32,000 nt of DNA, taken from the NCBI RefSeq assembly GCF_000014785.1, contig NC_008340.1, positions 3,090,001-3,122,000 on the forward strand, read 5' to 3'. The DNA comes from Alkalilimnicola ehrlichii MLHE-1 (GTDB taxonomy: Bacteria > Pseudomonadota > Gammaproteobacteria > Nitrococcales > Halorhodospiraceae). Positions 1 to 21,357 of the stretch are shown piece after piece. Every line of letters starts with the position of its first letter. Positions within the stretch are counted from its first letter, which is position 1. A program made the translations under genes and the position numbers. Under the pieces are notes generated by a model that saw only the letters and a list, made by a program, of their open reading frames with translations, did no database searches and was not told the origin of the DNA.

Positions 1-928
1 CAGAATAAAAGACCTTGCTGGAGAAACTCAGCCGGTCACTGGCCTGGAAGGCATGGGTGAGGTCCCACTTCCAGTAGTTCACGGAGATGTTGTTGTCCTT
101 GCGCCCCTCACCGAGCCGGCGCTTGCCGCGCGGATCGATGGCGAAGTCCTCGGGGGAGAGGTTGCTCTCATCGTAACCGTCGGAGCGCTCCCGAAAGTGG
201 AGAATCGACGTCCGCAGATCGTGCCGGGCATTCACGTCCCAGTCGAAGCTGGCGTAGAAGTCGTCGAACTGGTGCTCCTCGGTATCAAACACCCCGTCCG
301 AATTGGCCCCGGTATAGGCCAGCACCACGCCCACGTCGTCCACGGTACGCCGGTGCATCAGGTGGCGTTTGAAAGTGCCCTGATTACCCCCCGCCAGTTC
401 CACCGTGGTCTCCGGCGTGGGCGTGGCCTGCTTGTTGCGGAAGTTGACGATGCCGTGGTTGTTCAGCGGCCCATGGATCAACTGCCCCGCGCCCTTCAAT
501 ACCTCCACCCGCTCCAGGCGCTGCATGGGCGGCGTGTAGTGGGCACTGGGGTCCAAGTAGTTGCTGGCGCTGATCGGCGAACCATCCTCCAGCAGCAAGG
601 TCTTGCGGGAGCGCCGGGGCGGCGCGCCACGCACGCCGATGCCGCTACGCAGGCCCAGGGCATCATCATCAATGGTCCTGACGCCGGCGACGAAATCAAA
701 GGCATCGTGCAGGGTGAACGGCCGCAGCGCCTCGAAGTCGAGATCGGTGAGCACCGAGGCCGCGCCGGGCGTATCAGCCACCTCATCGAGCAGCAGCGCA
801 CGCACCTGCAACGGCTGCAGGGCGCGGACGGCGCCGGCGGTCTCGTCCTCAGCCAGGGCCGCGCCGGCGGCTGGCAACAGGCTCAGGCCGGCAGTCAGAC
901 AAATCAGGGAATGGGTCTTGCGGTCCAT
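1..928 (-). CDS. TonB-dependent outer-membrane receptor, N-terminal ~309 codons (C-terminus lies beyond the window edge)
   Basis: Absent from the ORF track because it has no stop in the window. Reverse-strand reading from the ATG (cat at 926-928), preceded by SD GAGGAGGAG, gives MDRKTHSLICLTAGLSLLPAAGAALAEDET (signal peptide). A TonB-box-like LQPLQVRA and plug-domain motifs follow (GIGVRGAPPRRSRKTLLLEDG, LERVEVLKGAGQLIHGP). The frame I hand-translated is open down to base 2. The + ORF 53..976 is its antisense shadow. Confidence 0.8.
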   Translation of the reverse strand, partial: MDRKTHSLICLTAGLSLLPAAGAALAEDETAGAVRALQPLQVRALLLDEVADTPGAASVLTDLDFEALRPFTLHDAFDFVAGVRTIDDDALGLRSGIGVRGAPPRRSRKTLLLEDGSPISASNYLDPSAHYTPPMQRLERVEVLKGAGQLIHGPLNNHGIVNFRNKQATPTPETTVELAGGNQGTFKRHLMHRRTVDDVGVVLAYTGANSDGVFDTEEHQFDDFYASFDWDVNARHDLRTSILHFRERSDGYDESNLSPEDFAIDPRGKRRLGEGRKDNNISVNYWKWDLTHAFQASDRLSFSSKVFYS

Positions 929-1195
929 ACGGGGTCTCCTCCTCTCACCCACGATTTCTGGTTTCGTATGGATTGAGTGTGCCCCCTGGAAGGCGCGCAT
1001 GACATAGGAGAAATTCCTGATCGCACAGATTGTTAAGGGGACGCACAGCGGTCTGGGGAAGGGCATAAAAAGCGACGCACATCCCTGTGCGCCGTCAAAG
1101 GCACGGCGTGAGCCGGAAGCACCCGATACACCGGTCACGGACCCGTGTGGGCCCCAGGGCGGGGCCCGCCGCTTCACTAGGAGGAGCGAAGAGGA

Positions 1196-2440
1196 TCAGA
1201 AGAACAGAATGGCACCCAGGGCCACGTTGTCCTCGCGATTGTCGTCACCCGCATGGTTCTCGGCCTTGGTCCGGGTGAACTCGGCGACCAGGTTCAGGTT
1301 CGGCGTGATCGGATGGTACGCGCCCACGATCACCGAGCTGTTGCGGTCAAGCAGGGTATCGGGATCGCCGTTGTTTTGGTCCAGGTTGCTTTCCCCGTAA
1401 CTCAAACCGAGCTTGGTGCCCAATCCCGGCAGGGTGTAGGTGCCCTGCAGCATGAAGCCGTCAGAGTCGCGGCGCGTCCCATCCGCGGAGGCGGCTTGGT
1501 GGAGAAACGCCGTGGTGCCGATGCCCTTGCCTTCGTAGTAGTAGGCGACGCCCTCGAAGCCGGCGATGCCCGCCTTGACGCCCAGGTCGAACCCGGTGGC
1601 GCGGAAGTCATCGAAGCTGCCGTCCCGGTCATCCACCTTCTGGTTGATGAACCCGGCCCAGACGCGGCCACTGACATCCCGAGCCGTCCAATCGTAAGTG
1701 ACTTTGCCCTCGACCGCCGGGCTGGTCTTTTCCCCCACCGCAGCTAGGGAGTTGTCACCCGGCGCGACGGTGAAGGGATCGAAGGGATCAGTGGCGCCGA
1801 TCACAAAGCCAAAGCCGTTGAAATCGGGCGAGGCGTAGCTGATCTGCGCCTTCCAGTCCGCGTAGAGATAGCCGTTGCCGACCCGACCCAAGGAGGTGTT
1901 GCCACCCCCCAGGGTGATATCGGAGACCGTGCCCACCCCCAACAGGCTCATATCGGAGAGGATGGCATCGGAGCCGAAGATCCCCAGGTCACGCCCGAGC
2001 TTGAAGGTACCGATGCGCTCATTGCCCACGGTCAGGAAAACCTGACGGAAGTTCACGTTGCCGAAGCCCAGCCCAGTGTCCGCCGAACCGGCGACGGAGA
2101 CCGCGTCCCCGCCATCCACACCCGGCCAGTAGCTGACATAGGCCGCGATATCGAGGCCGTTCTGGGTGGTGGAGGCGCCGATGCCGAGCTTCGCTGGCAG
2201 AAAACCGGTTCGGATATTGGCGCGCCGGTCGCTCTCCGCGGCGTCCGTGCAGGCCAGGCCGCCCTGGACGGTCGCCGCATCGCTCTCGCAACGGGTGTTC
2301 GTGTAATAGGCATTGACGTTGCCGTCGAAGGTCAGGGTCCAATCACCGGCCTCGACCTCGATCTGCGCCTGGGCGGCGGAGGCCAGCAATAGGCCCGCCA
2401 TACCTGCAGCCGTGGCCACTGGAGTGGTAAAACGTCGCAT
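1196..2440 (-). CDS. Outer-membrane general porin (beta-barrel)
   Basis: 414-aa ORF with signal peptide ...LLLASAAQAQ. Alternating Gly/Tyr/Asp-rich strand pattern, aromatic C-terminus ...ALGAILFF, SD GAGGAGA 8 nt before the ATG. Confidence 0.8.
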   Translation of the reverse strand: MRRFTTPVATAAGMAGLLLASAAQAQIEVEAGDWTLTFDGNVNAYYTNTRCESDAATVQGGLACTDAAESDRRANIRTGFLPAKLGIGASTTQNGLDIAAYVSYWPGVDGGDAVSVAGSADTGLGFGNVNFRQVFLTVGNERIGTFKLGRDLGIFGSDAILSDMSLLGVGTVSDITLGGGNTSLGRVGNGYLYADWKAQISYASPDFNGFGFVIGATDPFDPFTVAPGDNSLAAVGEKTSPAVEGKVTYDWTARDVSGRVWAGFINQKVDDRDGSFDDFRATGFDLGVKAGIAGFEGVAYYYEGKGIGTTAFLHQAASADGTRRDSDGFMLQGTYTLPGLGTKLGLSYGESNLDQNNGDPDTLLDRNSSVIVGAYHPITPNLNLVAEFTRTKAENHAGDDNREDNVALGAILFF

Positions 2441-2558
2441 GGTTGCATTCTCCTCTAGGGGTTCGGCGTATCACTTTTTTCGTTATCGCCGTGGTTCAAT
2501 TGTTTTGTGGTTGGCTACCAGCCCCACGCTTCCCTCGTGTGATAACGCCGAACCCTAA

Positions 2559-2574
2559 AGCAGCGACCATGCCA
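2559..2574 (-). promoter_or_regulatory. Candidate sigma-54 (-24/-12) promoter for the porin gene
   Basis: The reverse complement reads TGGCAT-GGTCG-CTGCT. GG and GC have the canonical spacing of TGGCAC-N5-TTGCW. It lies ~120 nt upstream of the porin ATG at 2440. The -12 element is CTGC rather than TTGC. Confidence 0.45.
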
Positions 2575-2658
2575 ACAACCAAAATCCCTACAGACACCAA
2601 CACTTAATACATAGCTGCCGGCTCAGCCAGTTGGCCTTATGTACCCATGACAACACAG

Positions 2659-2809
2659 TGTGACACCCACTATTCACAGGAATGCCACACCATTAGGATG
2701 CAGGTTCGGTGACTAAACCCCACACCCACAATGGGGCGATCACTGTTGTCCCGGCCATCGAAACCCCGGTGTCACAACTCATCGGGAAACTGTGCCATCA
2801 GCGTGACAC
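2659..2809. promoter_or_regulatory. Cluster of GTGACAC/GTGTCAC elements plus an ACTGTGCCAT-CAGCGTGACA box; candidate enhancer (UAS) for the sigma-54 activator
   Basis: TGTGACAC at 2659-2666. GTGTCAC at 2769-2775 and GTGACAC at 2803-2809 form a 7-bp inverted repeat with a 27-bp spacer. ACTGTGCCATCAGCGTGACAC lies at 2789-2809. The cluster sits between two divergent -24/-12 promoters, and a related box recurs at 7303-7337. Confidence 0.4.
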
Positions 2810-2872
2810 TTGCTGCGACAACAACTGCCCAGCAACTCGACATCAGGCCGATATTCAGTGGGTTACACAGGA

Positions 2873-2888
2873 TGGCCCAACCCTTGCT
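2873..2888 (+). promoter_or_regulatory. Sigma-54 (-24/-12) promoter for aldehyde dehydrogenase
   Basis: TGGCCC-AACCC-TTGCT matches TGGCAC-N5-TTGCW with correct GG/GC spacing. It lies 137 nt upstream of the ATG at 3025. A sigma-54 activator gene is present in the window. Confidence 0.65.
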
Positions 2889-3024
2889 CTCTCCATCGCT
2901 GAGTCGGCAGGGTCGGCGTTGAACGGGCCCCCCGCACCGCCCCCCCGACCCGAGGCCTCCCGTCGAAGGGCTCAGGCCGAATACAGCAGATAACAAACCG
3001 AATGATGCGATCGAGGAGACAGTA

Positions 3025-4545
3025 ATGATCTACGCAAACCCCGGTGAGCGCGACGCGAAAGTCCAGTTCAAACCCCGCTACGGAAACTTCATCAATGGCG
3101 AGTGGGTAGAACCGGCCAGTGGCCAGTATTTTGAGAACATCACCCCGGTAACGGGAGAAGTATTCTGCGAAGTCGCCCGGTCCAATGCCGATGACGTGGA
3201 ACGCGCCCTGGACGCGGCCCACGCCGCCAAAGATGCCTGGGGGAAAGCGTCGGTGACCGAGCGTGCCAACGTGCTGCTGAAGATCGCCGATCGCATGGAG
3301 GCCAACTTGGAGCGCCTGGCGGTGGCCGAGACCTGGGACAACGGGAAGCCCGTGCGTGAAACCCTCAACGCCGATCTCCCGTTGGCCATTGATCACTTCC
3401 GCTACTTCGCCGGGGCCATCCGGGCCCAGGAAGGCGGTATCAGCGAGATCGACCACGACACCATCGCCTACCACTTTCATGAGCCGCTGGGCGTGGTGGG
3501 GCAAATCATCCCCTGGAACTTCCCGCTGCTGATGGCCACCTGGAAGATCGCCCCGGCCCTGGCTTGTGGCAACTGCATCGTGCTCAAGCCCGCCGAGCAG
3601 ACACCGGCGTCCATCCTGGTGTTGATGGAGTGCATCCAGGACGTGCTGCCCCCGGGGGTGCTGAACGTGGTGAACGGCTTCGGTGTCGAGGCCGGCAAGC
3701 CGCTGGCCACCAGCAACCGCATCGCCAAGGTGGCGTTCACCGGCGAGACCACCACCGGGCGGCTGATCATGCAGTACGCCGCCGAGAACATCATCCCGGT
3801 AACCCTGGAGCTGGGCGGCAAATCGCCGAACATCTTCATGGCCGACGTGATGGACCAGGATGACGACTTCCTGGACAAGGCCATTGAGGGGATGACCCTG
3901 GCGTGCCTGAACCAGGGCGAGGTCTGCACCTGTCCCTCGCGCGCGCTGATCCAGGAGGACATCTACGACGATTTCATTGCCAAGGTGATCGACAGGTTCA
4001 GCATGGTGAAACAGGGCAACCCGCTGGACACCGAAACCATGATCGGGGCCCAGGCCTCCTCCGAGCAGATGGAGAAGATCCTGAGCTACATGGACATCGG
4101 TCGGCAGGAAGGCGCCGAGTGCCTCATCGGCGGCGACCGCGCCGAGATCGGCGGTGATTTCCAGAACGGCTACTACGTGCAGCCGACCCTGTTCCGCGGC
4201 CACAACAAGATGCGCATCTTCCAGGAGGAGATCTTCGGCCCGGTGGTTTCCGTCACCACTTTCAAGGACGAGGCCGAGGCGCTGGAGCTGGCCAACGACA
4301 CCCTCTACGGCCTGGGGGCCGGTCTCTGGAGCCGCAGCGCACACACCACCTACCGCATGGGCCGGGCCATCCAGGCCGGCCGGGTGTGGACCAACTGCTA
4401 CCACCTGTACCCGGCCCATGCCGCCTTTGGTGGTTACAAGCAGTCCGGCATCGGGCGGGAGAACCACCAGATGATGCTGGAGCACTACCAGCAGACCAAG
4501 AACCTGCTGGTGAGCTACAGCCCCAAGGCCATGGGCTTTTTCTAA
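3025..4545 (+). CDS. NAD(P)+-dependent aldehyde dehydrogenase (acetaldehyde dehydrogenase, AcoD/ExaC-like, 506 aa)
   Basis: 506 aa with SD GAGGAGA. N-terminus ...[16 protein letters not shown] hallmarks include PWNFPLLM, catalytic-Glu motif ELGGKSP, catalytic-Cys region [11 protein letters not shown] and EEIFGPV. Its length and N-terminus are typical of the 506-aa ethanol/acetoin-associated ALDH group. Confidence 0.93.
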
Positions 4546-4558
4546 GCTGACGTCAGGC

Positions 4559-4590
4559 GCGGGCGGCGTAAAGCCGCCCGCTCGCTTTCC
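4559..4590 (+). terminator. GC hairpin with a weak T-tract after the aldehyde dehydrogenase (partial terminator/attenuator or mRNA stabiliser)
   Basis: GCGGGCGGC-gtaaa-GCCGCCCGC is a perfect 9-bp stem (4559-4581), followed by tcgctttcc. Confidence 0.45.
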
Positions 4591-4660
4591 CGACGACCGG
4601 TCCTGCCGGCGCCGTCCTCGAAGAGGGGCACCGGCCGGTCCGACACCAGGAGGCAGGCGC

Positions 4661-5041
4661 ATGAGTCATTCCCCCGTATCCCGCGTCACCGCCACCGAGG
4701 CGGCGCTGGAACTCATCGACGAACTGCGCGCCCAGCATGGTGAGTTAATGTTCCACCAGTCCGGCGGCTGCTGCGACGGCAGCTCACCCATGTGTTATCC
4801 GAGGGGCGAATTCCGCATCGGTCAGAGCGACATCTTGCTCGGCGAGATCGGTGGCTGTCCTTTCTACATGAGCGAGTCCCAATTCGAATACTGGCAACAC
4901 ACCCACCTGATTATCGACGTTGTGCCCGGCCGTGGCGGCATGTTCTCGCTGGAGGGCCCCACGGGCAGACGTTTCCACACCCGTTCAAGGCTGTTCACCG
5001 ATGCCGAATGGACGGCATTGCAAGCGCAGGAGGGCCGCTGA
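4661..5041 (+). CDS. DUF779 family protein (commonly paired with aldehyde dehydrogenases)
   Basis: 126 aa with SD CAGGAGG. Motifs FHQSGGCCDGSSPMCY and VVPGRGGMFSLEG match what I recall of DUF779. Its position directly downstream of an ALDH is the classic context. Confidence 0.8.
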   Translation: MSHSPVSRVTATEAALELIDELRAQHGELMFHQSGGCCDGSSPMCYPRGEFRIGQSDILLGEIGGCPFYMSESQFEYWQHTHLIIDVVPGRGGMFSLEGPTGRRFHTRSRLFTDAEWTALQAQEGR

Positions 5042-5107
5042 GCGCAGGCGGTCTACCCCAACTGACAGAACTAAGGTGCCCCCACTAGAGGCGCCGGAGA
5101 ATGATCT

Positions 5108-7174
5108 ATGCGACCACTGACCCCATACCCCACCCTGGGTGTTCTCTCATCCCTGATCCTCGGCACCGCGGGCACCGCCGTGGCCGACACCACCCCATCG
5201 GCCGAGGCCTTGGAGCCTATCCAGGTCACCGCACCGCGCCTGGAGCGGGATTGGCTGGCAAACCCATCCGCCGTCGGCGTGCTCACGCCGGAGGACATCC
5301 AGCCCGGGCACCAGAATCTGCAGATGGATGAACACCTGAACCGGATCCCCGGCCTACAGATGCAAAACCGCTACAACTTCTCCCAGGATTTGCGGGTCTC
5401 CATCCGCGGCTTTGGCGCGCGCGCGCCCTTCGGTATCCGGGGGCTGCGGGTAATCGTGGACGGGATCCCCGAAACCCTCCCCGACGGGCAGTCCCAAGTG
5501 GACGCCATCGACCTGGAATCGCTGCACCAGGCCGAGGTCATCCGCGGCCCCAGCTCAACCCTTTACGGCAACGCCGCGGGCGGCGTGCTCGATCTCCGTA
5601 CCCAAAGCGGCCGGGATATCGACGGCGCCGCGGTCAAGCTGGATTACGGCAGCGACGACTTCCGGCGCATCGGCCTCAAGGCGGGCGGCGGCCAGGGGCC
5701 TTGGGAGTACAGCGTCAGTACCTGGGATATGCGCTACAACGGCTACCGGGATCACAGTCGGGTGGAGAAGCGCCTGTTCAACAGCAAGCTGGCCTATGAA
5801 TGGGCTGATGGCGGACGCCTGGAGACCATCGTCCGCCTGTTGGATGCCCCGGACACCCAGGATCCGGGCTCCCTGACCCTGGACCAAGTGGATGAGGACC
5901 GCCGGCAGGCACGCCCCGAGTCAAAGGCACTGGATGGCGGCCAGTCCGCCGAGCAGCAGACGGTGGGCCTGGTCTACTCGCGTCCCATGGCCGCCCAGGA
6001 CGAAATCACCCTGCGCGCTTTCTACACCCGCCGCGATTTCGGCAATCGACTGCCCTTCGAGAGCGGTGGTCAGGTTCAGTACGAGCGCGACTTTTACGGC
6101 CTGGGCGGCCAATACACCCATCTCAACGAAGTGATGGGGCGCCCCGCCCGGCTCGGCGTAGGCTTCGACGCCGAGGAACAGCGCGACGACCGCCAGCGCT
6201 TTGACAATCTGGCCGGCGGGGCGCGCGGTGACCAGACCTTCGACCAGCGGGAAAAGGCGCGGACCCTGGCGCTCTTCAGCCAGGGCGATCTCGCCCTGAC
6301 CGACCGGTTGGACCTCGTCTTCGGAGCGCGCTTCGACCAACTGCGCATCGCCGTCGATGACCGATTCCAGCCGATGGGTGAAGACCGCTCCGGGCGTGAG
6401 ACCTTCAACGAGTGGAGCTACAGCACCGGTCTGAGCTACCGCTGGGCCCGCGCCCACCAGATCTACGCCAACGTCGGCACATCCTTCGAGAGTCCCACCT
6501 TCACCGAGTTCGCGAATCCCGACGGTGGCACCGGGTTCAATCCCGACCTGAAACCCGAAAAGGCCGTCAACTACGAGCTGGGCGCCAAGGGGTTCATCGG
6601 CGATCACAGCCGTTACGAGCTGTCGCTTTACACCATTCGCGTCCGCGATGAGATCGTTAATTTCCAGCGGGACGCCGGTCGCGACTTCTACGAGAACTCA
6701 GGCCGTTCCCGCCGTAACGGCCTGGAACTGGGCCTGGAACACCGCCCCGCAGACCAATGGGTCCTGACCGCCGCCTACACCTACACCGACTTTGAGTTCC
6801 GCGACTTTGAAGACCGGTTCGGTAATGACTTCAGCGGCAACGCCTTCCCCGGCGTCCCGCGCCAACAGTTATTCGCCGAGGCGGCGTGGCAGGATCGCGA
6901 GGGCCGCTTTGCCGCCCTGGATGTCGTTGCCGTTGACCGGCAGTACGCGGACAACGCCAACGAGGAGCGGGTATCGGGCTACGGGGTCGCCAACCTCCGC
7001 GCCGGCACCCGGCTAAGGCTGCAGGGCCTGGAGGTCTCGCCCTATGTGGCGGTGAACAACCTTTTCGACAAAGAGTACTTCAGCAACATTCGCATCAATA
7101 CCTTCGGCGGGCGCTTTTATGAGCCCGCCCCCGAGCGCACTGTCTTCGCCGGCGTTACCATCCGCCCCCGATAG
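5108..7174 (+). CDS. TonB-dependent receptor, YncD/PqqU-like subfamily (candidate PQQ or metal-chelate importer)
   Basis: 688 aa. Signal peptide ...GTAGTAVA, TonB-box-like EPIQVTAPR. Plug region PGLQMQNRYNFSQDLRVSIRGFGARAPFGIRGLRVIVDGIPETLPDGQSQ...VIRGPSSTLYGNAAGG. C-terminal NLFDKEY...GRFYEPAPERTVFAGVTIRPR. The subfamily call rests on remembered resemblance to E. coli YncD and is not computed. Confidence 0.85.
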   Translation: MRPLTPYPTLGVLSSLILGTAGTAVADTTPSAEALEPIQVTAPRLERDWLANPSAVGVLTPEDIQPGHQNLQMDEHLNRIPGLQMQNRYNFSQDLRVSIRGFGARAPFGIRGLRVIVDGIPETLPDGQSQVDAIDLESLHQAEVIRGPSSTLYGNAAGGVLDLRTQSGRDIDGAAVKLDYGSDDFRRIGLKAGGGQGPWEYSVSTWDMRYNGYRDHSRVEKRLFNSKLAYEWADGGRLETIVRLLDAPDTQDPGSLTLDQVDEDRRQARPESKALDGGQSAEQQTVGLVYSRPMAAQDEITLRAFYTRRDFGNRLPFESGGQVQYERDFYGLGGQYTHLNEVMGRPARLGVGFDAEEQRDDRQRFDNLAGGARGDQTFDQREKARTLALFSQGDLALTDRLDLVFGARFDQLRIAVDDRFQPMGEDRSGRETFNEWSYSTGLSYRWARAHQIYANVGTSFESPTFTEFANPDGGTGFNPDLKPEKAVNYELGAKGFIGDHSRYELSLYTIRVRDEIVNFQRDAGRDFYENSGRSRRNGLELGLEHRPADQWVLTAAYTYTDFEFRDFEDRFGNDFSGNAFPGVPRQQLFAEAAWQDREGRFAALDVVAVDRQYADNANEERVSGYGVANLRAGTRLRLQGLEVSPYVAVNNLFDKEYFSNIRINTFGGRFYEPAPERTVFAGVTIRPR

Positions 7175-7193
7175 CGCCCCACCAGTCCTCCGG

Positions 7194-7235
7194 CCCCCTG
7201 TTCCGGCCCCACCGGACAGGGGGTCCTTTGCTTCC
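7194..7235 (+). terminator. Rho-independent-like terminator after the TonB receptor
   Basis: CCCCCTGTTCCGG-cccca-CCGGACAGGGGG is a 12-bp stem with one bulged T (7194-7223), followed by tcctttgcttcc. Confidence 0.55.
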
Positions 7236-7302
7236 GGGGTGCCGGCCACAGCAACCCGATAAAGGTGCCTGTCTCCCGCCTGTAACAGCCCCGGCCCGGC
7301 CG

Positions 7303-7337
7303 ACTGTGCCATTCCTGGGACACTGCAGCGTGACAGC
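7303..7337. promoter_or_regulatory. Candidate UAS upstream of the PQQ-ADH promoter, related to the box at 2789-2809
   Basis: ACTGTGCCAT (7303-7312), then GGGACAC, then CAGCGTGACA (7326-7335). Both decamers ACTGTGCCAT and CAGCGTGACA are shared with the aldehyde dehydrogenase upstream region. The box lies ~130-160 nt upstream of the -24/-12 promoter at 7466. Confidence 0.4.
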
Positions 7338-7465
7338 CCCGATTTCAGCCGGTTCGCGACCCGACGCCGGCCCCCCATCGCCAAGGACAGCCCCCTCGCC
7401 ACGGCCCCGCCCCGCGTCATTCTGACGCACCTTGAGCGCCATCTCCGAGCACCCAAACGCAGAGC

Positions 7466-7481
7466 TGGCATAGCTGTTGCT
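7466..7481 (+). promoter_or_regulatory. Sigma-54 (-24/-12) promoter for the PQQ alcohol dehydrogenase operon
   Basis: TGGCAT-AGCTG-TTGCT is a near-perfect match to TGGCAC-N5-TTGCW. It lies 80 nt upstream of the ATG at 7561. Confidence 0.75.
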
Positions 7482-7560
7482 TGAAGGACGTTGCGGGCTG
7501 GCCACCAAGCCATCCAATTGCCTGGCAACGAAAAAAGAGATGAGAGGAGAAAGGCGAACA

Positions 7561-9369
7561 ATGACTACCGTAAAGCACAACCTGCGCATAGCGCTGATCC
7601 CGGCCACCGTGGCCGCCGTCGCCCTGGGGGCCGGATGCGCCACCGCGGGCAGCCACGGAAACGGGGACTTCCCCGAAAGTATCACCCAGGCGATGATCGA
7701 CGCCGACTTCCACCACAACGACCGCATCCTGACCTACGGCCAATCCCCCGAAGGACAGCGTTACAGCACCCTGGACAAGATCAACCGGGACAATGTGCAC
7801 GCCCTCACCCCGGCCTGGGCCTACTCCTTCGGCGGTGAACAGCAGCGGGGCCAGGAAAGCCAGACCCTGGTGTATGACGGCGTGATCTACGTGACCGGCT
7901 CTTACTCCCGCATGTGGGCGGTGGATGCCCGCACCGGCGAGCGGCTCTGGCAGTACGCCCACCGCCTGCCCGACGGCATCATGCCCTGCTGTGACGTGGT
8001 CAACCGCGGCATGGCCCTCTACGACGACCTGGTCATCTTCGGCACCCTGGATGCGCAACTGGTGGCCTTGGACCGGCACACCGGCCGGGTCCGTTGGCGC
8101 GACCGCATCGCCGACTACCGGGCTGGCTATTCCTACACCGCCGCACCGATGATCGCCAACGATCTGTTGATCACCGGCAACTCCGGAGGCGAGTTTGGCG
8201 CCGTCGGCGAAGTGCAGGCCCGCGACCCGAAGACCGGCGACATCGTCTGGACCCGCCCGGTGGTGGAAGGTCACATGGGCACGCTGCCGGATGGCAGTGA
8301 GACCATGACCGGCGAGCTGAACGCAACCTGGGAGGGTGAGGCCTGGAAGACCGGCGGTGGCGCCCCCTGGCTGGGCGGCACCTATGACCCGGAGCTCAAC
8401 CTGATCTACATCGGCACCGGCAACCCGGCCCCGTGGAACGCCCACGCCCGCCCCGGTGACAACCTCTACACCTCCGCCACCGTGGCCCTGGATGCCGACA
8501 CCGGGGAGATCGTCTGGTACTACCAGACCACCCCCAATGACCACTGGGATTACGACGGCGTCAATGAGCTGGTGCTGTTCGACTACGAGCACAACGGTGA
8601 GACCGTCAAGGCCGGTGCCAAGGCCGACCGCAACGGCTTCTTCTACGTGATGAACCGGGAGAACGGCGAGCTGCTGCTGGCCGAACCCTTCGTGGAGAAC
8701 ATCACCTGGGCCAGCCATATCGACATGGAGACCGGGCGCCCGGTCGAAATCGAGGGCGGCCGCCCGGGCAACCCGGCCGACATGGAGGGCGACCGGGGCG
8801 AGGCCGTGACCGCCCAGCCGGCCTTCCTTGGCGGCAAGAACTGGAGCCACATGTCCTACAGCCAGCGCACGGGCCTGTTCTATATCCCCTCCAACGAGTG
8901 GGAGATGGAGATCTGGAATGAGCCGGTGGACTACCGTCGCGGTGCCGCTTACCTGGGTGCCGGCTTCACCATCAAGCCCATCTACGACGACAAGGTCGGC
9001 GTACTGCGCGCCCTCGACCCGGCCACTGGCGAGATTGTCTGGGAAGTGCCCAACCGCTCGCCGCTCTGGTCCAGCGTGCTCACCACCGCCGGCGGCCTGG
9101 TCTTCTACGGCACCCCCGAGGGCCACCTGAAGGCCATGTGCGATGAGACCGGGGAGGAGCTCTGGAGCTTCCAGACCGGTTCCGGGATCGTCGGCCAACC
9201 GGCCACCTGGGAGATGGACGGCGAACAGTATATCTCCGTGGTCTCCGGCTGGGGCGGCGCGGTGCCGCTCTGGGGCGGGGAGGTGGCCCCGCTGGTCCGC
9301 CATATTAGCCAGGGCGGCATGCTCTGGACCTTCAAGATCTCCGACCTGGCCGCGGAGGCCGGCCTGTAA
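7561..9369 (+). CDS. Periplasmic PQQ-dependent alcohol (ethanol/methanol-family) dehydrogenase, type I quinoprotein, with the lanthanide-type D-x-D signature
   Basis: The track ORF starts at 7477. I prefer the ATG at 7561 (SD GAGAGGAGAAAGG), which gives [31 protein letters not shown] as signal. The vicinal disulfide motif PCCDVVNRG is at C143-C144 (7987-7992). [13 protein letters not shown] aligns with MxaF TPHDEWDYAGVN. Propeller W-motifs occur throughout. Confidence 0.92.
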
Positions 9370-9387
9370 GGCCGAGCCCGCACGAAG

Positions 9388-9414
9388 GGCCCGGTGCCGC
9401 CGCAGCACCGGGCC
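9388..9414 (+). other. Perfect 10-bp intercistronic stem-loop between the ADH and cytochrome c genes
   Basis: GGCCCGGTGC-cgccgca-GCACCGGGCC. No clear U-tract follows (gttctgg). Likely a processing/stability element or partial terminator. Confidence 0.5.
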
Positions 9415-9469
9415 GTTCTGGCCCGGCGCCAGCATGCAGTGACCTTCAACGTATTAACGGTGCAACACC

Positions 9470-9916
9470 ATGGCTACTAGAACGACTAAGCGACTTCTGC
9501 AGACCGCCGTGGCCGGCGCGATGCTTGCGACAGGGATGGCCCTCTTCGCCCATGGCGATGTGAACCCGCAACCGGTGGATACCGGCGACCTACCGGAACT
9601 GGACGACTGGAAACTGGAAAACCCCTTTCGCGACGCCGATGAATCTACGCTCAACGAGGCCATACGCATCGGCGAGCGCGGCTACCAGGCCAACTGTGCC
9701 GTCTGCCACGGTCTCGGCGGCGCCTCCGGTGGAATCGCCCCGGACCTGCGCCTGCTGGAACCCGGCTTCGACGACGAATACTACGTTCAGACGGTTCGCA
9801 AGGGTCGCGGCGCCGGCATGCCGTCGTTCGACGGCGTACTGAGCCAGGAGGCCATCTGGGCCATTTACACCTGGCTGAACACCATGCACGAGGAGGCGAT
9901 GGATGAATACTACTGA
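9470..9916 (+). CDS. Cytochrome c550-type electron acceptor for the quinoprotein dehydrogenase (ExaB/PedF-like)
   Basis: 148 aa. Signal peptide ...MALFA/HGD. A single heme motif CAVCHG (9695-9709) and a distal Met in GRGAGMPSF. It sits immediately downstream of the PQQ-ADH. Confidence 0.85.
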   Translation: MATRTTKRLLQTAVAGAMLATGMALFAHGDVNPQPVDTGDLPELDDWKLENPFRDADESTLNEAIRIGERGYQANCAVCHGLGGASGGIAPDLRLLEPGFDDEYYVQTVRKGRGAGMPSFDGVLSQEAIWAIYTWLNTMHEEAMDEYY

Positions 9917-10919
9917 TCTGATCAAGGCCGGCCGCCTGGCCGCCACCGCCGCCCTCTGCGGTGCCACGCTGTTCGCCGGTAGCGCGAACGCCGAGCGGCT
10001 GCACGAGATCCGCGACCGCGGCACACTGACCGTTGCCCTGTACAACGACTTCGGGCCCTACTCCTGCGTCGGCACCGGCGGCGAGCTGATCGGGGTTGAC
10101 GTGGCCCTGGCCCGCGCCCTGGGCGAGAAGCTGGACCTGAAGGTGGAGCTGGCCGGCTTCGGCGCCCAGGACAGCATGGACCAGGACCTGGCCCTGCTGC
10201 AGGACGAACAGGCCGAGGACGAGTGGGACGAGGCCCTGCTCGAGCGCGCCCCCGACCTGATGATGCACGTACCGGTGGACCCCGTCTTCCAGGAGCGCAA
10301 CGCCGATTACGACATCATGGGCGCCTACTTCCACGAGGCCATGGCGGTGCTCTACGACCGCGAGGAAATCGGCGATCTGGGGTACTCGGTGAACACCCCG
10401 GACCCGTTCGATGGCCTGCGCGTGGGTGTGGAGATGTACACCTACTCCTACACCATGCTCACCAACGGCTTTGACGGCCGCCTGCGCTCCGGCGTGGTCA
10501 ACCACAAGAACGTGCCCGAAGCAGTGGAGGCCCTGCTTGCCGGTGAGACCTCCGCGGTTTTCGCACCGCGCGGCGAGCTTCAGAGCGCCCTGGCCGCCTT
10601 CCCCGAACCGCGCACCAGCCTCGCCCTGAGCGAGCTGCGCGACCTGTTCCGCACGGACCGGGTGCGTAGCGACTGGGACGTGGGCATGGCCGTCAAGGCC
10701 GGCAACCCGGAGCTCTCCCGGGCAGTCGAGGAGGCCATGGCACAACTGGTGGCCGACGGGACCGTGGAGCGTATCTTTAACGAATACGGCATCGCCTGGG
10801 TGGGCCCGGGGGAGGAGTACCGCCTAGCCCGCAACGGCAATGGCCCCGCGGGCGTGACCCGCACCGGCCTGGAACGCGCGCAGCTCTGCCGGGCAACAAT
10901 GCCGGCCGGACTGTACTGA
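9903..10919 (+). CDS. Periplasmic family-3 substrate-binding protein, MoxJ/MxaJ-like (quinoprotein-dehydrogenase-associated)
   Basis: 338 aa. It overlaps the cytochrome c stop by 14 nt, which suggests coupling. Signal peptide ...FAGSANA, then RDRGTLTVALYNDFGPYS typical of PBP type-2 domains. An acidic insertion DSMDQDLALLQDEQAEDEWDEALLER is present. No cognate permease or ATPase is adjacent. Confidence 0.7.
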   Translation: MNTTDLIKAGRLAATAALCGATLFAGSANAERLHEIRDRGTLTVALYNDFGPYSCVGTGGELIGVDVALARALGEKLDLKVELAGFGAQDSMDQDLALLQDEQAEDEWDEALLERAPDLMMHVPVDPVFQERNADYDIMGAYFHEAMAVLYDREEIGDLGYSVNTPDPFDGLRVGVEMYTYSYTMLTNGFDGRLRSGVVNHKNVPEAVEALLAGETSAVFAPRGELQSALAAFPEPRTSLALSELRDLFRTDRVRSDWDVGMAVKAGNPELSRAVEEAMAQLVADGTVERIFNEYGIAWVGPGEEYRLARNGNGPAGVTRTGLERAQLCRATMPAGLY

Positions 10920-10951
10920 GCACCCGCGTCGAAACCCTGGGAGGATGCGCC

Positions 10952-11719
10952 ATGAGGGTATCCCCGCACTTGCTACCCCTTTGCTTGCTTCTGGCAGCGG
11001 CGCTGGCGGCTCCGGCCGCCGCTGGCGTCGAGGAGGATCCACTGGGTTCGCCGGGCTGGCACTTGTCCAAGGCCCGCTATTTCCAAGGCGAAACTTATGT
11101 CTTCGCCCACGACAAGGTCCAGGTGATTGCACCGGATAGTGCCGAGGACACCTTCCAGGTCCCCGGTTTCGTCCGCGTCGAGGGGCTGGGCAACGTACGG
11201 CGGCTGATGGTCTTCACCGACCTCAACCCCATCCCGAAGATCCTCGACATGGAGATACCGCGCGGCGCGCCCAATGTGGGCTTCCGGTTCAAAGTCGAGC
11301 AGGCGACGGCCCTGCGGGCCGCGGCACAGACCGAGGACGGCGTCTGGCACCTGGGGGGCACCTGGATCGACGCTGCCGGCGGCGGCTGCAGCGCACCGAG
11401 CATCGCCAGCGCCGATCCAGCCTGGGAGAGCCGGTTGGGCGAAATCCGCGGCCGCACCTGGCAGCGGGAGGGCAGCCAACGGGTGCGCTTCAGCCTCCTG
11501 CACCCCATGGATACCGGGCTTGCCCCTGGAATCCCCGAGTTTTACCTGGAAGAGCTGGAGGTCCGGGACGGCAATGACCAGACGCTGGCCCGCATGGAGA
11601 TCCACGCCTCCATGTCGGAGAACCCCCATCTGACCCTCGACCTGGAGCACCGGGGTACAACACGACTGGTCGGTCGTGATAACAACGGCAACCGCTTCGA
11701 GGGGACCCTGCAGCCATGA
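10952..11719 (+). CDS. Fused SoxY-like/SoxZ-like periplasmic carrier protein with an internal GGGC cysteine motif (quinoprotein-associated)
   Basis: 255 aa with SD GGGAGGA and signal peptide ...AAPAAAG. The N-domain ends in WIDAAGGGCS (Cys146, codon 11387-11389), resembling the SoxY C-terminal GGC carrier motif. The C-domain has SoxZ-like LLHPMDTG and SMSENPHLTL. Cys146 is the only Cys outside the signal peptide. Confidence 0.7.
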   Translation: MRVSPHLLPLCLLLAAALAAPAAAGVEEDPLGSPGWHLSKARYFQGETYVFAHDKVQVIAPDSAEDTFQVPGFVRVEGLGNVRRLMVFTDLNPIPKILDMEIPRGAPNVGFRFKVEQATALRAAAQTEDGVWHLGGTWIDAAGGGCSAPSIASADPAWESRLGEIRGRTWQREGSQRVRFSLLHPMDTGLAPGIPEFYLEELEVRDGNDQTLARMEIHASMSENPHLTLDLEHRGTTRLVGRDNNGNRFEGTLQP

Positions 11720-12693
11720 TGGAATACCCACTGCAAGCGCCTTTCCTTCGGCTGGCGGCGATGGCGCTAGGCCTCCTGACCATTGGAGCTGCCAACGCGG
11801 GGGGAATCTTTTACGGCCTGCAGCCGCAGCAGGTCGCCGATGGGGTGTACATCTTCGAGGGTCGCCAGGAACACTTCACCCGGCGCAATGGCGGCAATAT
11901 CGTCAACACCGGCTTTGTGATCACCAGCGCCGGGGTGGTGGTATTGGACACCGGGCCGTCCCGGGCCTACGGGGAGGAGATGCGCCGCGCGATCGCACAA
12001 GTCACCGATCAACCCATCCACAGTGTCTACCTGACCCACCACCACCCCGATCACTTTCTGGGCAACCAGGCCTTCGAGGATGTCCCCATCTGCGCCCTGC
12101 CCTACACCCGCGAGATGATCGAGCGGGACGGCGAGGCGCTGCTGGACAACATGTATAACCTGCTCAGCGGCTGGATGGGCGGCACCTATGTGGTGGCGCC
12201 GGATTGCACCGCCGAGCCAGGGCCTGTCACCGTAGGCGAACGCACGCTTGAGGTCATCGCCGGCGCCGGGCACAGCGGCCCCGAGGCCTCTGACCTCATG
12301 CTCCACGACCAGCGCAGCGACACCCTGTTCGCCGGCGACCTGGTCTTCTACGACCGGGCGCCCACCACCCCCCATGCGGACCTCTCCCGCTGGGTCGCGC
12401 TGCTCCATGAGTTGGAACGGGAACTGCCCCGAACACTGGTGCCAGGTCACGGCCCCGTCACCCGCGACGTCGAGGCCGTGCTGCAGACCCGTGACTACGT
12501 GGAGTGGCTCGCCTCCGCCCTGCGCGAAGCGGCGGAACAGGGCCTGGACATGGCCGAGGCACTGGAGTTGGAGGTGCCGGAACGCTTCCGCCATCTGGCA
12601 GTGGTGGACGAAGAACTGCGCCGTTCGGTGGCGCACCTGTACCCGGGTTACGAAACCCAAGCATTGAACCAAGTCATTGATGGTCTGCAATAG
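11716..12693 (+). CDS. Periplasmic metallo-beta-lactamase-fold zinc hydrolase (quinoprotein-cluster-associated)
   Basis: 325 aa. ATGA overlap with the upstream stop. Signal-like N-terminus ...LTIGAANAGG. HxHxDH motif THHHPDH (12037-12054). Downstream GAGHSG and LVPGHG are metal-ligand-like His. Confidence 0.8.
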   Translation: MMEYPLQAPFLRLAAMALGLLTIGAANAGGIFYGLQPQQVADGVYIFEGRQEHFTRRNGGNIVNTGFVITSAGVVVLDTGPSRAYGEEMRRAIAQVTDQPIHSVYLTHHHPDHFLGNQAFEDVPICALPYTREMIERDGEALLDNMYNLLSGWMGGTYVVAPDCTAEPGPVTVGERTLEVIAGAGHSGPEASDLMLHDQRSDTLFAGDLVFYDRAPTTPHADLSRWVALLHELERELPRTLVPGHGPVTRDVEAVLQTRDYVEWLASALREAAEQGLDMAEALELEVPERFRHLAVVDEELRRSVAHLYPGYETQALNQVIDGLQ

Positions 12694-13318
12694 CCGCCAC
12701 CATCGCGAGGGCAAGGGGTGGCGCCGCTCAGGCACCGTGCCGGCCCTGGTCGTTTGCGGGCTACTGCTCAGCGGGTTGCTAATCCCGGGTGTGGCCGCGA
12801 CGGTGGACGATGCCGATGACCCCATCTGGCACCACCCGCACATCAACGCCGAGGGTTACCGTTATGCCCGCTACCGCGCCGCGACACCGGACTCTGTGCC
12901 GGAAGGGGAGACGGTGGATACCGGCCGTGCACAAGCCCTCTGGGCCGCCGGGGAGGTCGTGGCCATCGATGTGATGCCGGTCCTCGAACGGAAAGGACCG
13001 GACGGGAAGCCGGAGTGGGTGGTGCTGGAGGAACGCCGGCACATTCCCGGAAGCATCTGGCTACCCAACGTGGGCGCGGGGCGGCTGAGCCCAGAAATGG
13101 AGGCCTGGTTCGCCGATGCCCTGGCGGAGTTGACCGCCGGTGATAGCAACCAGCCGCTCCTCTTCTACTGCATCACGGATTGCTGGATGGCCTGGAACGC
13201 GGTGCGCCGCGCGGCCGCCCTGGGTTACACCTCGCTCTACTGGTACCCGCCGGGGGCGGATGGCTGGCAGCGGGCGGGGCTGCCGACGGAACCTGCCCAA
13301 CCGAAACCACGACACTAA
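12680..13318 (+). CDS. Periplasmic rhodanese-like protein with a C-x3-C-W motif (PQQ-catabolism-associated CXXCW-type family)
   Basis: The track ORF starts with TTG at 12677. The ATG at 12680 overlaps the MBL gene end. Signal peptide ...LLIPGVAATV. Motif LLFYCITDCWMAWNAVRRAA (Cys164/Cys168/Trp169, 13169-13186). The family assignment is from memory of genomic-context families. Confidence 0.6.
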   Translation: MVCNSRHHREGKGWRRSGTVPALVVCGLLLSGLLIPGVAATVDDADDPIWHHPHINAEGYRYARYRAATPDSVPEGETVDTGRAQALWAAGEVVAIDVMPVLERKGPDGKPEWVVLEERRHIPGSIWLPNVGAGRLSPEMEAWFADALAELTAGDSNQPLLFYCITDCWMAWNAVRRAAALGYTSLYWYPPGADGWQRAGLPTEPAQPKPRH

Positions 13319-13327
13319 CAGGTCATT

Positions 13328-13636
13328 ATGCGCACAACCAACCACTTGGCCCTTGCCATGACCCTGCTGCTCGCCGCCGGCCCGGCCCTGGGCGATGACG
13401 GGGCAGACGGTGCGGAGCGCTACCGTGACGGCATGATCGGTCGCATTGAGGCCTATGCGGTCTACAAGATGGGGGATTACGAAGGCGCCTTCCGCCGTTT
13501 CCTCCAGATGGCCCTGGCGGGGGACCCGGCCGCCATGGAACAACTGGCCACCCTCTACGAGCGCGGCCAGGGTATGGCGGCCCCGGATCCAGTGGCGGCA
13601 GAGGCGTGGCGCGGACGGGCCCGGGAGGCCGACTGA
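13328..13636 (+). CDS. Small secreted Sel1/TPR-like repeat protein
   Basis: 102 aa. Signal peptide ...AAGPALG/DD. Sel1-like repeat LAGDPAAMEQLATLYERGQGMAAPDPVAAEAWRGRA. The SD is weak. Confidence 0.55.
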   Translation: MRTTNHLALAMTLLLAAGPALGDDGADGAERYRDGMIGRIEAYAVYKMGDYEGAFRRFLQMALAGDPAAMEQLATLYERGQGMAAPDPVAAEAWRGRAREAD

Positions 13637-13831
13637 TGAACCGAACATGGATATAAAATATATTCTTTTTCCGACCAACTATACAGTCGGCGTAAAAGTC
13701 CGGTTATAGTAACCGAACAGGGATAATAAAAAGGTGCACGAAGCCGACCAAAACGCTTTACAACGCCTTTCGAAGCGGTACCGGTGCCCCACCAGAACAA
13801 CAGTCACAGGGGCGACCGGCAGGAGGAGAGA

Positions 13832-15820
13832 ATGTCATCGATTATCGCCCCGATCTCCTTGGGACGCGCCTCTGAGGGCGGATACCCCAGCCCCCTCCCG
13901 GGCGACAAGGCGCAGCGCCTCATTTCCAAGAGTTGGCAGCGTTGTCAGGCCTACGGCCTCGACCCCCGCAAAAAGCCAAAGGACGCCAACGTGCTGGAAG
14001 GCCCGCAGGTAAAGGAAGAGCGGGAGCGTCACGGCGAGCTGCTGAAAGTGGCCAACGCCGAGATGCACAGCCTTTACCAGCAGGTCTCCGGGTCCGGCTG
14101 GTCCCTGCTGCTCACGGACAACCGCGGCGTGATCCTCGACTACGTGGGAGACCCGAACCTGCGGCGTGAATTCCGTTCGGCGGGCCTGTGGCTGGGTGCC
14201 GACTGGAGTGAACGCCACGAAGGTACCAACGGCATCGGCACCGCCCTCACTGAGAGCCGCCCGGTGGCAGTACTGCGGGACCAGCACTATAAGGCGTGTC
14301 ACCACGCGCTGAGCTGTTGCGGGGCCCCCATTCTGGACGCCAACGGCCAGGTGATGGCCGTCCTGGACGCCTCCACCGTGAACGGCAATCAGACGCCGGA
14401 GACCCAGAGCCACACCCTGGCACTGGTCACCCTGTCCGCCCAGTTCATCTCCAAGTGGCGGTTCCTGGAGGAATTCTCGGATGCCATCATCATCCGCTTC
14501 CACAGCCGCTGCGAATATGTCGGTCTGATCAATGACGGTGTGCTGGCGGTCTCCCGGGACGGCACCATCGTTGGTGCCGACCACAACGCCTGCGTCTTCC
14601 TGGGACTCCCCGACCGGCATCGCCTCATCGGCTGGCCCATTGACCAGGTCTTGGACATCCGTCCGGAGATCCTGGTGGAACGGGCCGAACGCCCGTACCT
14701 CCCCTACTGGGTGCTCACCACGGCCCAGGGCACCCAGTTGCACGCCCGTATCCAGCTGGGGCACACAGCAGCGGGCCGCCGGGCGGCGGAACAGCCCGCC
14801 CGCCCCGTACCGGTCCAAAGCCGCAGTGCCAGTCAACCCCGCGATCACCGCGCCACGCTCTGCACCCTGGAGGCACTCAAGGGCAATGACCCGCGCATGG
14901 CGCGCAACGTTAACCGGGCCTACCGGATCATCGATAAGGACATCCCCATCCTGTTGAACGGCGAGACCGGCACCGGCAAGGAACTGTTCGCCCGCGCCGT
15001 GCATACGGCCAGCAGCCGCAGGGACGGCCCCTTCGTTGCCGTGAACTGCGCCTCGATACCGGAGCCCCTGATCGAGAGCGAGCTGTTCGGCTACAAGGGT
15101 GGCGCCTTTACCGGCGCCGACCGCAACGGGCGCAAGGGCAAAATCCTCCAGGCCCACGGCGGCACGCTGTTCCTGGACGAGATCGGGGATATGCCGCTGG
15201 AACTGCAGGCCCGCCTGCTGCGGGTCCTGGAAGAGCGCGAGATCGTGCCCATCGGCGGTGACAAACCACAGGCGGTGGATGTCTACCTGGTCTCGGCGAC
15301 TCATCACAACCTTCCGGAGCTGGTGGCCGAGGGGCGCTTTCGGGAAGACCTTTACTACCGACTCAACGGCCTCACCCTGACCCTACCCCCGTTGCGCGAC
15401 CGGGCTGACTGCCAGGATGTCATTCGCTGCATCCTGCGACTGGAGAGCGATGGCCGGGTGGATATCGATCAGGCGGCGTTGGCGGTGCTGCGCAACCATC
15501 CCTGGCCCGGCAATATCCGCCAGCTACGCAACGTGCTGCGCACCGCCGTTGCGCTCAGCGATGGCGAGACGCTCACGGTGGAAGACCTGCCCGACGATGT
15601 GCTGGATGCCGCTGAGACAGCCGGCGACGACCAGGTGATAGAGGGCACCTGCACCGGCGGCGGCGACCCGTTGGCCAACGCCGAGCGCCGGGCACTCCAA
15701 GCCGCCCTGGAGCAGCACGGCGGCAACGTCAGCCGCACTGCGGAGAGCCTGGGCGTGAGCCGTAACACCCTCTACCGGAAGATGCGGCGGCACGGTCTCG
15801 GCGGCGCCCGCGGCGGCTGA
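13832..15820 (+). CDS. Sigma-54-dependent transcriptional activator, AcoR-like (N-terminal GAF-type sensor, AAA+ core, Fis-type HTH)
   Basis: Start moved to the ATG at 13832 (SD AGGAGGAGAG). Walker A GETGTGKE, sigma-54 contact loop GAFTGA (15101-15118), ESELFGY and Walker [10 protein letters not shown]-terminal [25 protein letters not shown]. Confidence 0.9.
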
Positions 15821-15864
15821 GGGCTGAACGCGCCCGCGCGCCGCCGGGACCGGTAACAACGCCA

Positions 15865-17112: not shown

Positions 17113-17203
17113 GGTGCCTCCTCGGGTAGACCTATTGCCGGAATGTAACGGATAGCATAGCCACCCGACACCGGTCCGACAGGACGCCGCCCTTGGGAGG
17201 GGC

Positions 17204-18010: not shown

Positions 18011-18070
18011 CCCCTGCCCTGTCGCCACGCTGCGCCCCTCCAAGCCGGCGCCCGGTCCGACGACCGGGCG

Positions 18071-18850: not shown

Positions 18851-18852
18851 GT

Positions 18853-19551: not shown

Positions 19552-19732
19552 GACCAGGAAAGATAGTCGGAAAACGGCTGCACTGGGGCACACAGTCTGC
19601 CGACAACCGCTGCATCATGAAATGGAAACAGCCTTACAACGCGAATATGCAGGATAAGGGGCGGCCACCGCCGGCAGCGCGGGCGATGGCCGAAGCCGAG
19701 AGGAGAGGTGGATCAAGGGCGGGCGGGGGCCG

Positions 19733-19933
19733 TCACACCGGACGCTCCTGCTTGAACCCCAGCTTGCGCAGCACCGCCATCGCCGGGCACCAGCCAGAGA
19801 ATGCGGATTGCAGCAGGTTCAGCCCGACGAAGGCGGTGAACAGCAGCCAGGCCTCGTGGTGAGCGTAGGCCAGCACCACGGTGAGCAGCACGAAGAAGCC
19901 GGCGAGCATGCGAAGTCCAGCGTTTACGGTCAT
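19733..19933 (-). CDS. DUF2892 (YgaP-like) small membrane protein
   Basis: 66 aa with two hydrophobic helices. The characteristic LLQSAFSGWCP motif is near the C-terminus. Confidence 0.7.
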   Translation of the reverse strand: MTVNAGLRMLAGFFVLLTVVLAYAHHEAWLLFTAFVGLNLLQSAFSGWCPAMAVLRKLGFKQERPV

Positions 19934-19978
19934 CGGTCATATCTCCCTAATCATCAGTCTCAGGAACGGCGCATCGGT

Positions 19979-21352: not shown

Positions 21353-21357
21353 GGCGA

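Follow-up and report, generated by a model that had tools for sequence, protein, structure and literature searches.

In Pseudomonas, the exa/ped genes for alcohol oxidation are controlled via LuxR-type regulators and kinases (ErbR/AgmR, EraSR, PedS2/PedR2; PMC12997753, PMC6115532). Sigma-54 (RpoN) takes part in three other described systems. EatR (PA4021) of P. aeruginosa PAO1 senses acetaldehyde and activates a -24/-12 promoter located before the gene for an ExaC-like aldehyde dehydrogenase (ALDH) in an RpoN-dependent manner, according to the account in PMC5821096. Ralstonia solanacearum GMI1000 has a predicted RpoN promoter before exaC (Rsc3128), beside the gene for the AcoR-like protein Rsc3129, and its rpoN1 gene is required for growth on ethanol (PMC4676750). 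The exaA gene of Azospirillum brasilense Sp7, coding for an alcohol dehydrogenase that depends on pyrroloquinoline quinone (PQQ-ADH), is sigma-54-dependent, its co-regulator being a response regulator of the LuxR type, as cited in PMC6115532. Here we describe a 32,000 nt stretch of the Alkalilimnicola ehrlichii MLHE-1 genome (NC_008340.1, positions 3,090,001 to 3,122,000; hereafter the window, with coordinates counted from its first base), in which three predicted sigma-54 promoters precede genes for an outer-membrane channel, an ALDH and a PQQ-ADH. They are designated P_porin, P_aldh and P_adh, and it is likely, judging from the DNA sequence, that they are switched on by a locally encoded activator of the AcoR/EatR type that acts at GTGACA-based sites.

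A preliminary description of this DNA had reported three -24/-12 matches with correct GG/GC spacing, lying 80-140 nt upstream of start codons. All three are present, in the sense orientation and 79-136 nt from the start codons:

2574-2559, minus strand: P_porin, sigma-54 -24/-12 element TGGCATGGTCGCTGCT; 15.9 bits, rank 2 in the window; 3' end 118 nt away from the porin ATG at 2440 (minus strand); predicted transcription start site (TSS) ~2548, leader ~108 nt.
2873-2888, plus strand: P_aldh, sigma-54 -24/-12 element TGGCCCAACCCTTGCT; 14.5 bits, rank 3; 3' end 136 nt away from the ALDH ATG at 3025; predicted TSS ~2899, leader ~126 nt.
7466-7481, plus strand: P_adh, sigma-54 -24/-12 element TGGCATAGCTGTTGCT; 18.3 bits, rank 1; 3' end 79 nt away from the PQQ-ADH ATG at 7561; predicted TSS ~7492, leader ~69 nt.

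The GG-N10-GC register is canonical in each case (3/3). The PQQ-ADH ATG at 7561 is preceded by GAGAGGAGAAAGG, and the start at 7477 in the list of open reading frames (ORFs) is an in-frame TTG further upstream. Scoring with a sigma-54 matrix had been suggested in the preliminary description, and with the window and its dinucleotide shuffles as background the three sites came out on top, at ranks 1-3 among 64,000 strand positions (both strands); the matrix is heuristic, its frequencies based on the Barrios consensus YTGGCACGrNNNTTGCW, and it serves only as a ranking device. The loose pattern TGGC-N8-TGCW is found 9 times in the window (3.4 expected), and sites of at least 14 bits number 3, compared with 0.63 expected per dinucleotide shuffle of the window. 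About 8% of strand positions lie on the sense strand and no more than 200 nt upstream of a start codon, and within these zones ~0.05 sites of at least 14 bits would be expected and 3 were observed (Poisson P ~2e-5). By coordinates, the remaining matches of at least 11 bits are all within ORFs or at gene junctions, and those at 11720 and 27098 were also compared with the annotated genes. These two, which score at least 13 bits, were set aside as chance matches, the first sitting at the junction of the SoxYZ-like and hydrolase genes and the second within a gene for a major facilitator superfamily (MFS) transporter. The matches at 424 and 2400, both within ORFs by coordinates, were discarded in the same way. 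The intergenic regions had also been described as unusually low in GC, which applies to 2401-2700 (0.51) and weakly to 2701-3000 (0.61), but not to the region upstream of the ADH gene (0.68, against a window mean of 0.67).

The conservation of these elements was followed in 80 genomic loci gathered through homology to the activator protein (loci carry L numbers), in metagenomic contigs with an ADH 97% identical to that of the window (L166-168), and in more distant relatives found by tblastn with ADHs of 70-80% identity (L169-L173). In L166-168, the P_adh element forms a conserved island, in which a single spacer base has changed while both flanks have diverged: CTGGCATAGC[T/A]GTTGCT is retained, and the intergenic DNA around it is ~70% identical. 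The contigs of the close relatives (activators 91% and 84% identical, ADH 97% identical) end before the porin-ALDH spacer, so this footprint covers the P_adh side. All six relatives compared (L166 and L169-L173) have a site of 15.8-18.3 bits located 46-90 nt upstream of PQQ-ADH, those of L169-L173 scoring 15.8-18.1 bits. Across the 80 loci, TGGC-N8-TGC recurs 20-140 nt upstream of genes for ALDH, PQQ-ADH, cytochrome c and porin homologues that lie beside activator homologues, in Pseudomonas, Janthinobacterium, Methyloversatilis, Variovorax and other genera.

The weakest of the three sites is P_aldh, with TGGCCC in place of TGGCAC, and shuffled windows reach a score of 14.5 bits ~0.6 times per shuffle. 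One or more of the sites, most plausibly P_aldh or P_porin, might on these grounds be a chance or non-productive match, with the genes read from unrecognised sigma-70-type promoters. A scan of 900-16000 for a sigma-70-like consensus gave 0 matches (2.1 expected), a weak negative in a 67% GC genome since high-GC promoters fit the E. coli sigma-70 consensus poorly. We nevertheless regard this explanation as very improbable. The unusual TGGCCC form recurs before the ALDH orthologues of three Pseudomonas loci and one Variovorax locus (L004, L005, L007 and L024) as TGGCCC-N5-YTTGCT, and the L005 site is identical to P_aldh at 15/16 bases, which argues that the weakest-scoring site is real. Sites of the TGGCAC type precede the ALDH orthologues in L170, L173, L011, L015 and L028, and those of L170 and L173 score 14.9 and 16.4 bits. 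Porin homologues in seven other loci (L086, L089, L090, L092, L093, L095 and L172) carry equivalent sites of 15-17 bits; the 17.0-bit site of L172 stands before a porin of 57% identity and is divergent from the receptor-ADH unit. Metagenome porin homologues are often near activator homologues, and several have sites ~130 nt upstream. The joint placement of the three top-scoring sites also speaks against chance.

About fifty further metagenome contigs of ~1.3 kb (L110-L160) hold a porin homologue alone, its start codon preceded by 40-110 nt and its stop codon followed by little more DNA. They have the look of mRNAs assembled from a monocistronic porin gene that is strongly expressed. The -24/-12 motif is found in 0 of these contigs, as would be the case for sequences starting at the TSS.

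The gene for the putative activator closes the cluster:

13832-15820, plus strand: enhancer-binding protein (EBP) of the AcoR/EatR/DhaR/MimR type, made up of an N-terminal sensor of the MimR_N/GAF-like kind, a GAFTGA-bearing AAA+ domain and HTH_8; 100% identical to a protein known from A. ehrlichii MLHE-1.

An AcoR-like EBP with an intact GAFTGA loop had been proposed for these coordinates, and each of its expected parts was located. The AAA+ domain matches PF00158 (Sigma54_activat, 4.8e-67) and contains Walker A (GETGTGKE) and Walker B motifs; the GAFTGA loop, at nt 15101-15118, is intact; and residues 630-669 at the C-terminus match PF02954 (HTH_8). The N-terminus is assigned to PF26965 (MimR_N) in the precomputed annotation of the identical protein and close relatives, and residues 28-182 match the N-terminus of DhaR (PDB 4lrx; E 1.5e-6), a weak resemblance. 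A Pfam scan detected no Response_reg match, i.e. no receiver domain. An acetoin regulon under a true AcoR was considered and rejected, as there are no aco genes in the window. The preceding spacer, 13637-13831, is AT-rich, 195 nt long and includes GATATAAAATATATTCTTTTT; a sigma-54 match is missing from it, and the activator gene is therefore probably transcribed constitutively from a promoter of its own. Use of sigma-54 by this genome is indicated indirectly, by the intact GAFTGA activator in the window together with a putative RpoN promoter upstream of the arx genes of the same strain (PMC5908839).

Upstream of both P_aldh and P_adh lies a 19 bp motif, TGTGNCAT-N4-GNGACAC, with the core half-site GTGACA. 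The candidate enhancer, or upstream activating sequence (UAS), features of the two promoter regions are as follows:

2659-2677, plus strand: degenerate enhancer-like copy TGTGACACCCACTATTCAC, with GTGACA at 2660-2665; centre ~-119 from the P_porin TSS.
2770-2775, minus strand: inverted GTGACA half-site (TGTCAC on the plus strand), between the divergent P_porin and P_aldh.
2791-2809, plus strand: candidate UAS 19-mer TGTGCCATCAGCGTGACAC; centre ~-99 with respect to the P_aldh TSS and ~-252 with respect to that of P_porin.
7305-7323, plus strand: candidate enhancer 19-mer TGTGCCATTCCTGGGACAC; centre ~-178 from the P_adh TSS.
7330-7335, plus strand: further GTGACA; centre ~-160 from the P_adh TSS.
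7414-7428, plus strand: perfect palindrome GCGTCA-TTC-TGACGC; ~-71 from the P_adh TSS.

The two 19-mers agree at 14 positions, and no other stretch of the window matches the derived pattern. The two upstream regions share the words ACTGTGCCAT, GTGACAC and CAGCGTGACA. In L166-168, the 7305-7323 copy is 100% conserved, and in L169 the ADH promoter is preceded at an equal distance by TGTGACATGAACGTGACAC, which has 16/19 bases identical to the P_aldh 19-mer. In EatR-like loci of Pseudomonas, GGTACAAAGTGTCAC lies upstream of the ALDH promoter, at ~100 nt. Over the whole window, GTGACA/TGTCAC shows no excess (12 occurrences, 13.4 expected), with 4/12 falling in the two enhancer zones. Within the -260 to -30 zones of six loci (2.3 kb), 14 were counted where 0.96 would be expected, a ~15-fold enrichment (P ~3e-12). 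When 1.95 Mb of loci were searched for the 19-mer pattern with up to 2 mismatches, 14/36 matches were followed, 30-300 nt downstream, by a sigma-54 site scoring 13 bits or more, and 8 of these 14 were independent of the seed sequences.

The preliminary description had placed a shared enhancer between the porin and ALDH genes. A recurrent motif is indeed present there at enhancer distance, but as a single consensus 19-mer that adjoins P_aldh; a shared enhancer region is plausible, and one proximal site per promoter would fit the DNA equally well. The first 9 bases of the degenerate copy at 2659-2677 are those of the site upstream of the L086 porin promoter. The palindrome at 7414-7428 is unique in the window and lies inside a 29 nt block that is 100% conserved in L166-168 while its flanks have diverged, and it may bind a second regulator.

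These observations bear on which protein acts at the three promoters. The sites could be real sigma-54 promoters that need another EBP (an NtrC- or CbrB-type global regulator) or a LuxR-type co-regulator, with the local activator controlling only a part of the set. The palindrome upstream of P_adh has no binder assigned to it, the enhancer copy nearest P_porin is degenerate, and Azospirillum exaA needs a LuxR-type regulator in addition to sigma-54, as cited in PMC6115532. Against this, the activator gene is syntenic, keeping its position at the cluster end, in each close relative with the cluster's 3' end still present (L081-L083 and L170-L172), the same motif is found upstream of P_aldh, P_adh and orthologous promoters, and the window has no LuxR-type gene: a Pfam scan of 30 window ORFs detected neither a GerE/LuxR response regulator nor a HisKA_3 kinase. 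We consider the involvement of such other regulators unlikely, and control by the local activator remains the preferred explanation.

Several points weigh against that explanation, in addition to the low score of P_aldh and the heuristic matrix mentioned earlier. LuxR-type response regulator and kinase genes stand beside PQQ-ADH in L084, L169 and L173, and given these genes it is possible that a second regulatory layer is encoded elsewhere in the A. ehrlichii genome. All matches of the activator to named NCBIfam equivalog models are below cut-off (DhaR 305 vs 551; PrdR 316 vs 795), and its nearest relatives in a set of species-representative genomes share 46-47% identity. The enhancer motif was derived in part from the window itself, and the copy at 2659-2677 has 4 mismatches to the 19-mer pattern and counts as weak evidence. 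No site resembling that of integration host factor (IHF; WATCAANNNNTTR, up to 1 mismatch) was found in either promoter region or between the enhancers and the promoters, and rpoN is located outside the window.

In L084 and L169 (Ectothiorhodospiraceae), the genes for the LuxR-type response regulator and kinase form an operon that adjoins PQQ-ADH. Its kinase resembles the lanthanide-sensing MxaY/PedS2 in having a LapD_MoxY_N sensor domain, and a sigma-54 site stands before the operon itself (7315-7330, 13.2 bits, in L084; 9633-9648, 16.1 bits, in L169), suggesting that the two control systems are arranged hierarchically in these loci.

In the arrangement proposed for the window, three transcription units would form a sigma-54 regulon for periplasmic alcohol oxidation. 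P_porin would direct transcription of a monocistronic outer-membrane channel gene; P_aldh, divergent from it, that of the genes for ExaC, DUF779 and a PqqU-like TonB receptor; and P_adh that of the genes for PQQ-ADH, cytochrome c550 and the accessory proteins of a 'quinoprotein relay'. Sigma-54 RNA polymerase would sit on the -24/-12 elements as a closed complex, and the activator encoded at 13832-15820 would bind the GTGACA-based sites ~100-180 bp upstream of the start sites. Sensing of an inducer by the MimR_N/GAF-type N-terminus would then lead to ATP hydrolysis, and the GAFTGA loop would open the promoters. We infer that the same activator drives all three. By analogy with EatR, acetaldehyde is the most likely inducer, which would give a product-induced feed-forward loop; alternatively, the alcohol itself may be sensed. 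The preliminary description had concluded that the whole pathway appears RpoN-dependent, and this is supported by the site statistics, the orthologous -24/-12 sites, the upstream motif, the conserved position of the activator gene and the absence of a sigma-70-like match in the scanned region and of a LuxR-type regulator among the scanned ORFs.

The genes and hairpins of the three units are listed here in the order of their coordinates:

1094-1073, minus strand: terminator-like hairpin after the porin gene.
1196-2440, minus strand: outer-membrane beta-barrel protein ('porin'), weak OMP_b-brl match; apparently monocistronic.
3025-4545, plus strand: ExaC acetaldehyde dehydrogenase; 973 bits against a cut-off of 900.
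4661-5041, plus strand: DUF779 protein, 115 nt after the ALDH gene.
5108-7174, plus strand: TonB-dependent receptor, nearest to PqqU (439 bits against a cut-off of 1200), 66 nt after the DUF779 gene.
7194-7233, plus strand: GC-rich 12 bp hairpin (CCCCCTGTTCCGG / CCGGACAGGGGG) followed by TCCTTTGCTT.
7561-9369, plus strand: PQQ-ADH of the methanol/ethanol family.
9470-9916, plus strand: cytochrome c550 PedF.
9903-10919, plus strand: substrate-binding protein.
10952-11719, plus strand: quinoprotein-associated SoxYZ-like carrier.
11716-12693, plus strand: quinoprotein relay zinc metallohydrolase.
12677-13318, plus strand: CXXCW rhodanese-like protein.
13328-13636, plus strand: small Sel1-like ORF.

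No relative of the porin was found in the PDB, and porin homologues often adjoin EBP genes. The extent of each operon is likewise inferred. The P_aldh operon is predicted to comprise the genes for ExaC, DUF779 and the PqqU-like receptor (3025-7174, plus strand), which occur in the same order in L166 and L170. The hairpin at 7194-7233 is its probable terminator, dividing it from P_adh; a strict terminator scan did not call this hairpin, and at the equivalent place L166 has a different hairpin and TTTTCTGATT, a T-run. The P_adh operon is predicted to span 7561-13636 (plus strand). Its genes from ADH to the rhodanese-like protein overlap or are no more than 100 nt apart, and the gene order is the same in L083 and L170-L172. 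Operon-like spacing is the sole basis for assigning the TonB receptor and the accessory genes to the predicted regulon.

Residues 330-333 of the PQQ-ADH (8548-8559) read D-Y-D-G, with an extra Asp two residues past the catalytic Asp, which we take to be a mark of lanthanide-dependent enzymes of the XoxF/PedH/ExaF type. Since this motif occurs together with a receptor gene that lies with the ALDH gene and is nearest to PqqU, the regulon may also import the cofactor or a lanthanide chelate.

Past the activator, the minus strand at 15865-24818 carries genes for a glucose/sorbosone dehydrogenase of the PQQ type (GSDH), for a phosphate-binding-like protein together with an ABC ATPase, and for a transporter set (DUF1302/LolA-like/MMPL). 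L081 shows the same gene order, and no strong sigma-54 site precedes these genes.

The leaders of the porin (2441-2558, minus strand) and ADH (7492-7560) transcripts share AACGAAAAAAG and a AGAGGAGAA Shine-Dalgarno region, features that may represent a post-transcriptional control element. An 11 bp long-range stem (2555-2545 with 2469-2459) is present in the porin leader, which, with z = -2.6, folds somewhat better than its shuffles, unlike the leaders of ADH and ALDH. In L166-168, nearly the whole ADH leader is conserved. No Rfam match was found in the window, and an A-rich motif of the Hfq/Crc type was discarded, as the shared AACGAAAAAAG does not fit AANAANAA.

A broader interpretation, which we put forward tentatively and hold to be less probable than not, is that the 19 bp site serves as operator for a broad, undescribed family of sigma-54 activators that respond to aldehydes or alcohols. 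Many Gamma- and Betaproteobacteria would use this family, in place of LuxR cascades of the Pseudomonas type, to co-ordinate a lanthanide-type PQQ-ADH, ExaC, a dedicated porin and a TonB receptor for cofactor uptake. In some lineages (L084, L169) the family would rank above LuxR-type two-component systems, which likewise have sigma-54 promoters before their operons.

For a haloalkaliphilic arsenite oxidiser, the analysis provides a regulatory map of alcohol oxidation with three predicted promoters, candidate operators and one activator. Outside Pseudomonas, the PQQ-ADH/ExaC module appears to be commonly wired to sigma-54 and an EatR/AcoR-type activator and not to LuxR-type cascades, and the conserved operator motif could aid regulon annotation and the design of aldehyde- or alcohol-responsive biosensors. 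The control scheme is already known in other bacteria, and an activator gene next to the cluster leads one to expect such wiring. What is added is modest, namely a consensus for the operator and the wide occurrence of the arrangement; it overturns no current view and opens no long-standing question. The preliminary description had set the locus apart from the ErbR/EraSR and PedS/PedR control of Pseudomonas, which is correct in that it has no LuxR-type genes, but the difference is not novel, as sigma-54 precedents have been published.

Of these precedents, the PA4022-eat-eutBC locus with EatR resembles the window in having an AcoR-type EBP without a receiver domain and a -24/-12 promoter that directly precedes the gene for an NAD+ acetaldehyde dehydrogenase resembling ExaC. 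Pseudomonas loci with the EatR layout (L004, L005 and L007) and the window also have in common an ALDH promoter of the TGGCCC type and an upstream site containing TGTCAC. Unlike the EatR regulon, the window lacks ethanolamine lyase and has the PQQ-ADH operon, the porin and the TonB receptor, and its activator gene is at the far end of the ADH operon instead of being divergent from the ALDH gene. The window activator and its Pseudomonas homologues share ~45% identity, and orthology to EatR is not established; neither an EatR nor an AcoR model is among the 25 NCBIfam matches listed. The Ralstonia Rsc3129/Rsc3128 pair is similar in that an AcoR-like EBP accompanies ExaC under a predicted RpoN promoter, but that case rests on prediction and the rpoN phenotype, and PQQ-ADH or porin units are not described in it. 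Azospirillum exaA codes for a methanol/ethanol-family PQQ-ADH and is read from a sigma-54 promoter, as cited in PMC6115532. It has PedF, substrate-binding protein and CXXCW neighbours, while its reported co-regulator is of the LuxR type; the window cluster instead encodes a classical AAA+ GAFTGA activator. With the exa/ped genes of Pseudomonas, the window has in common PQQ-ADH, cytochrome c550 PedF, an ExaC/PedI ALDH, a periplasmic binding protein and accessory genes, but its units, unlike those of Pseudomonas, are all three placed under predicted -24/-12 promoters.

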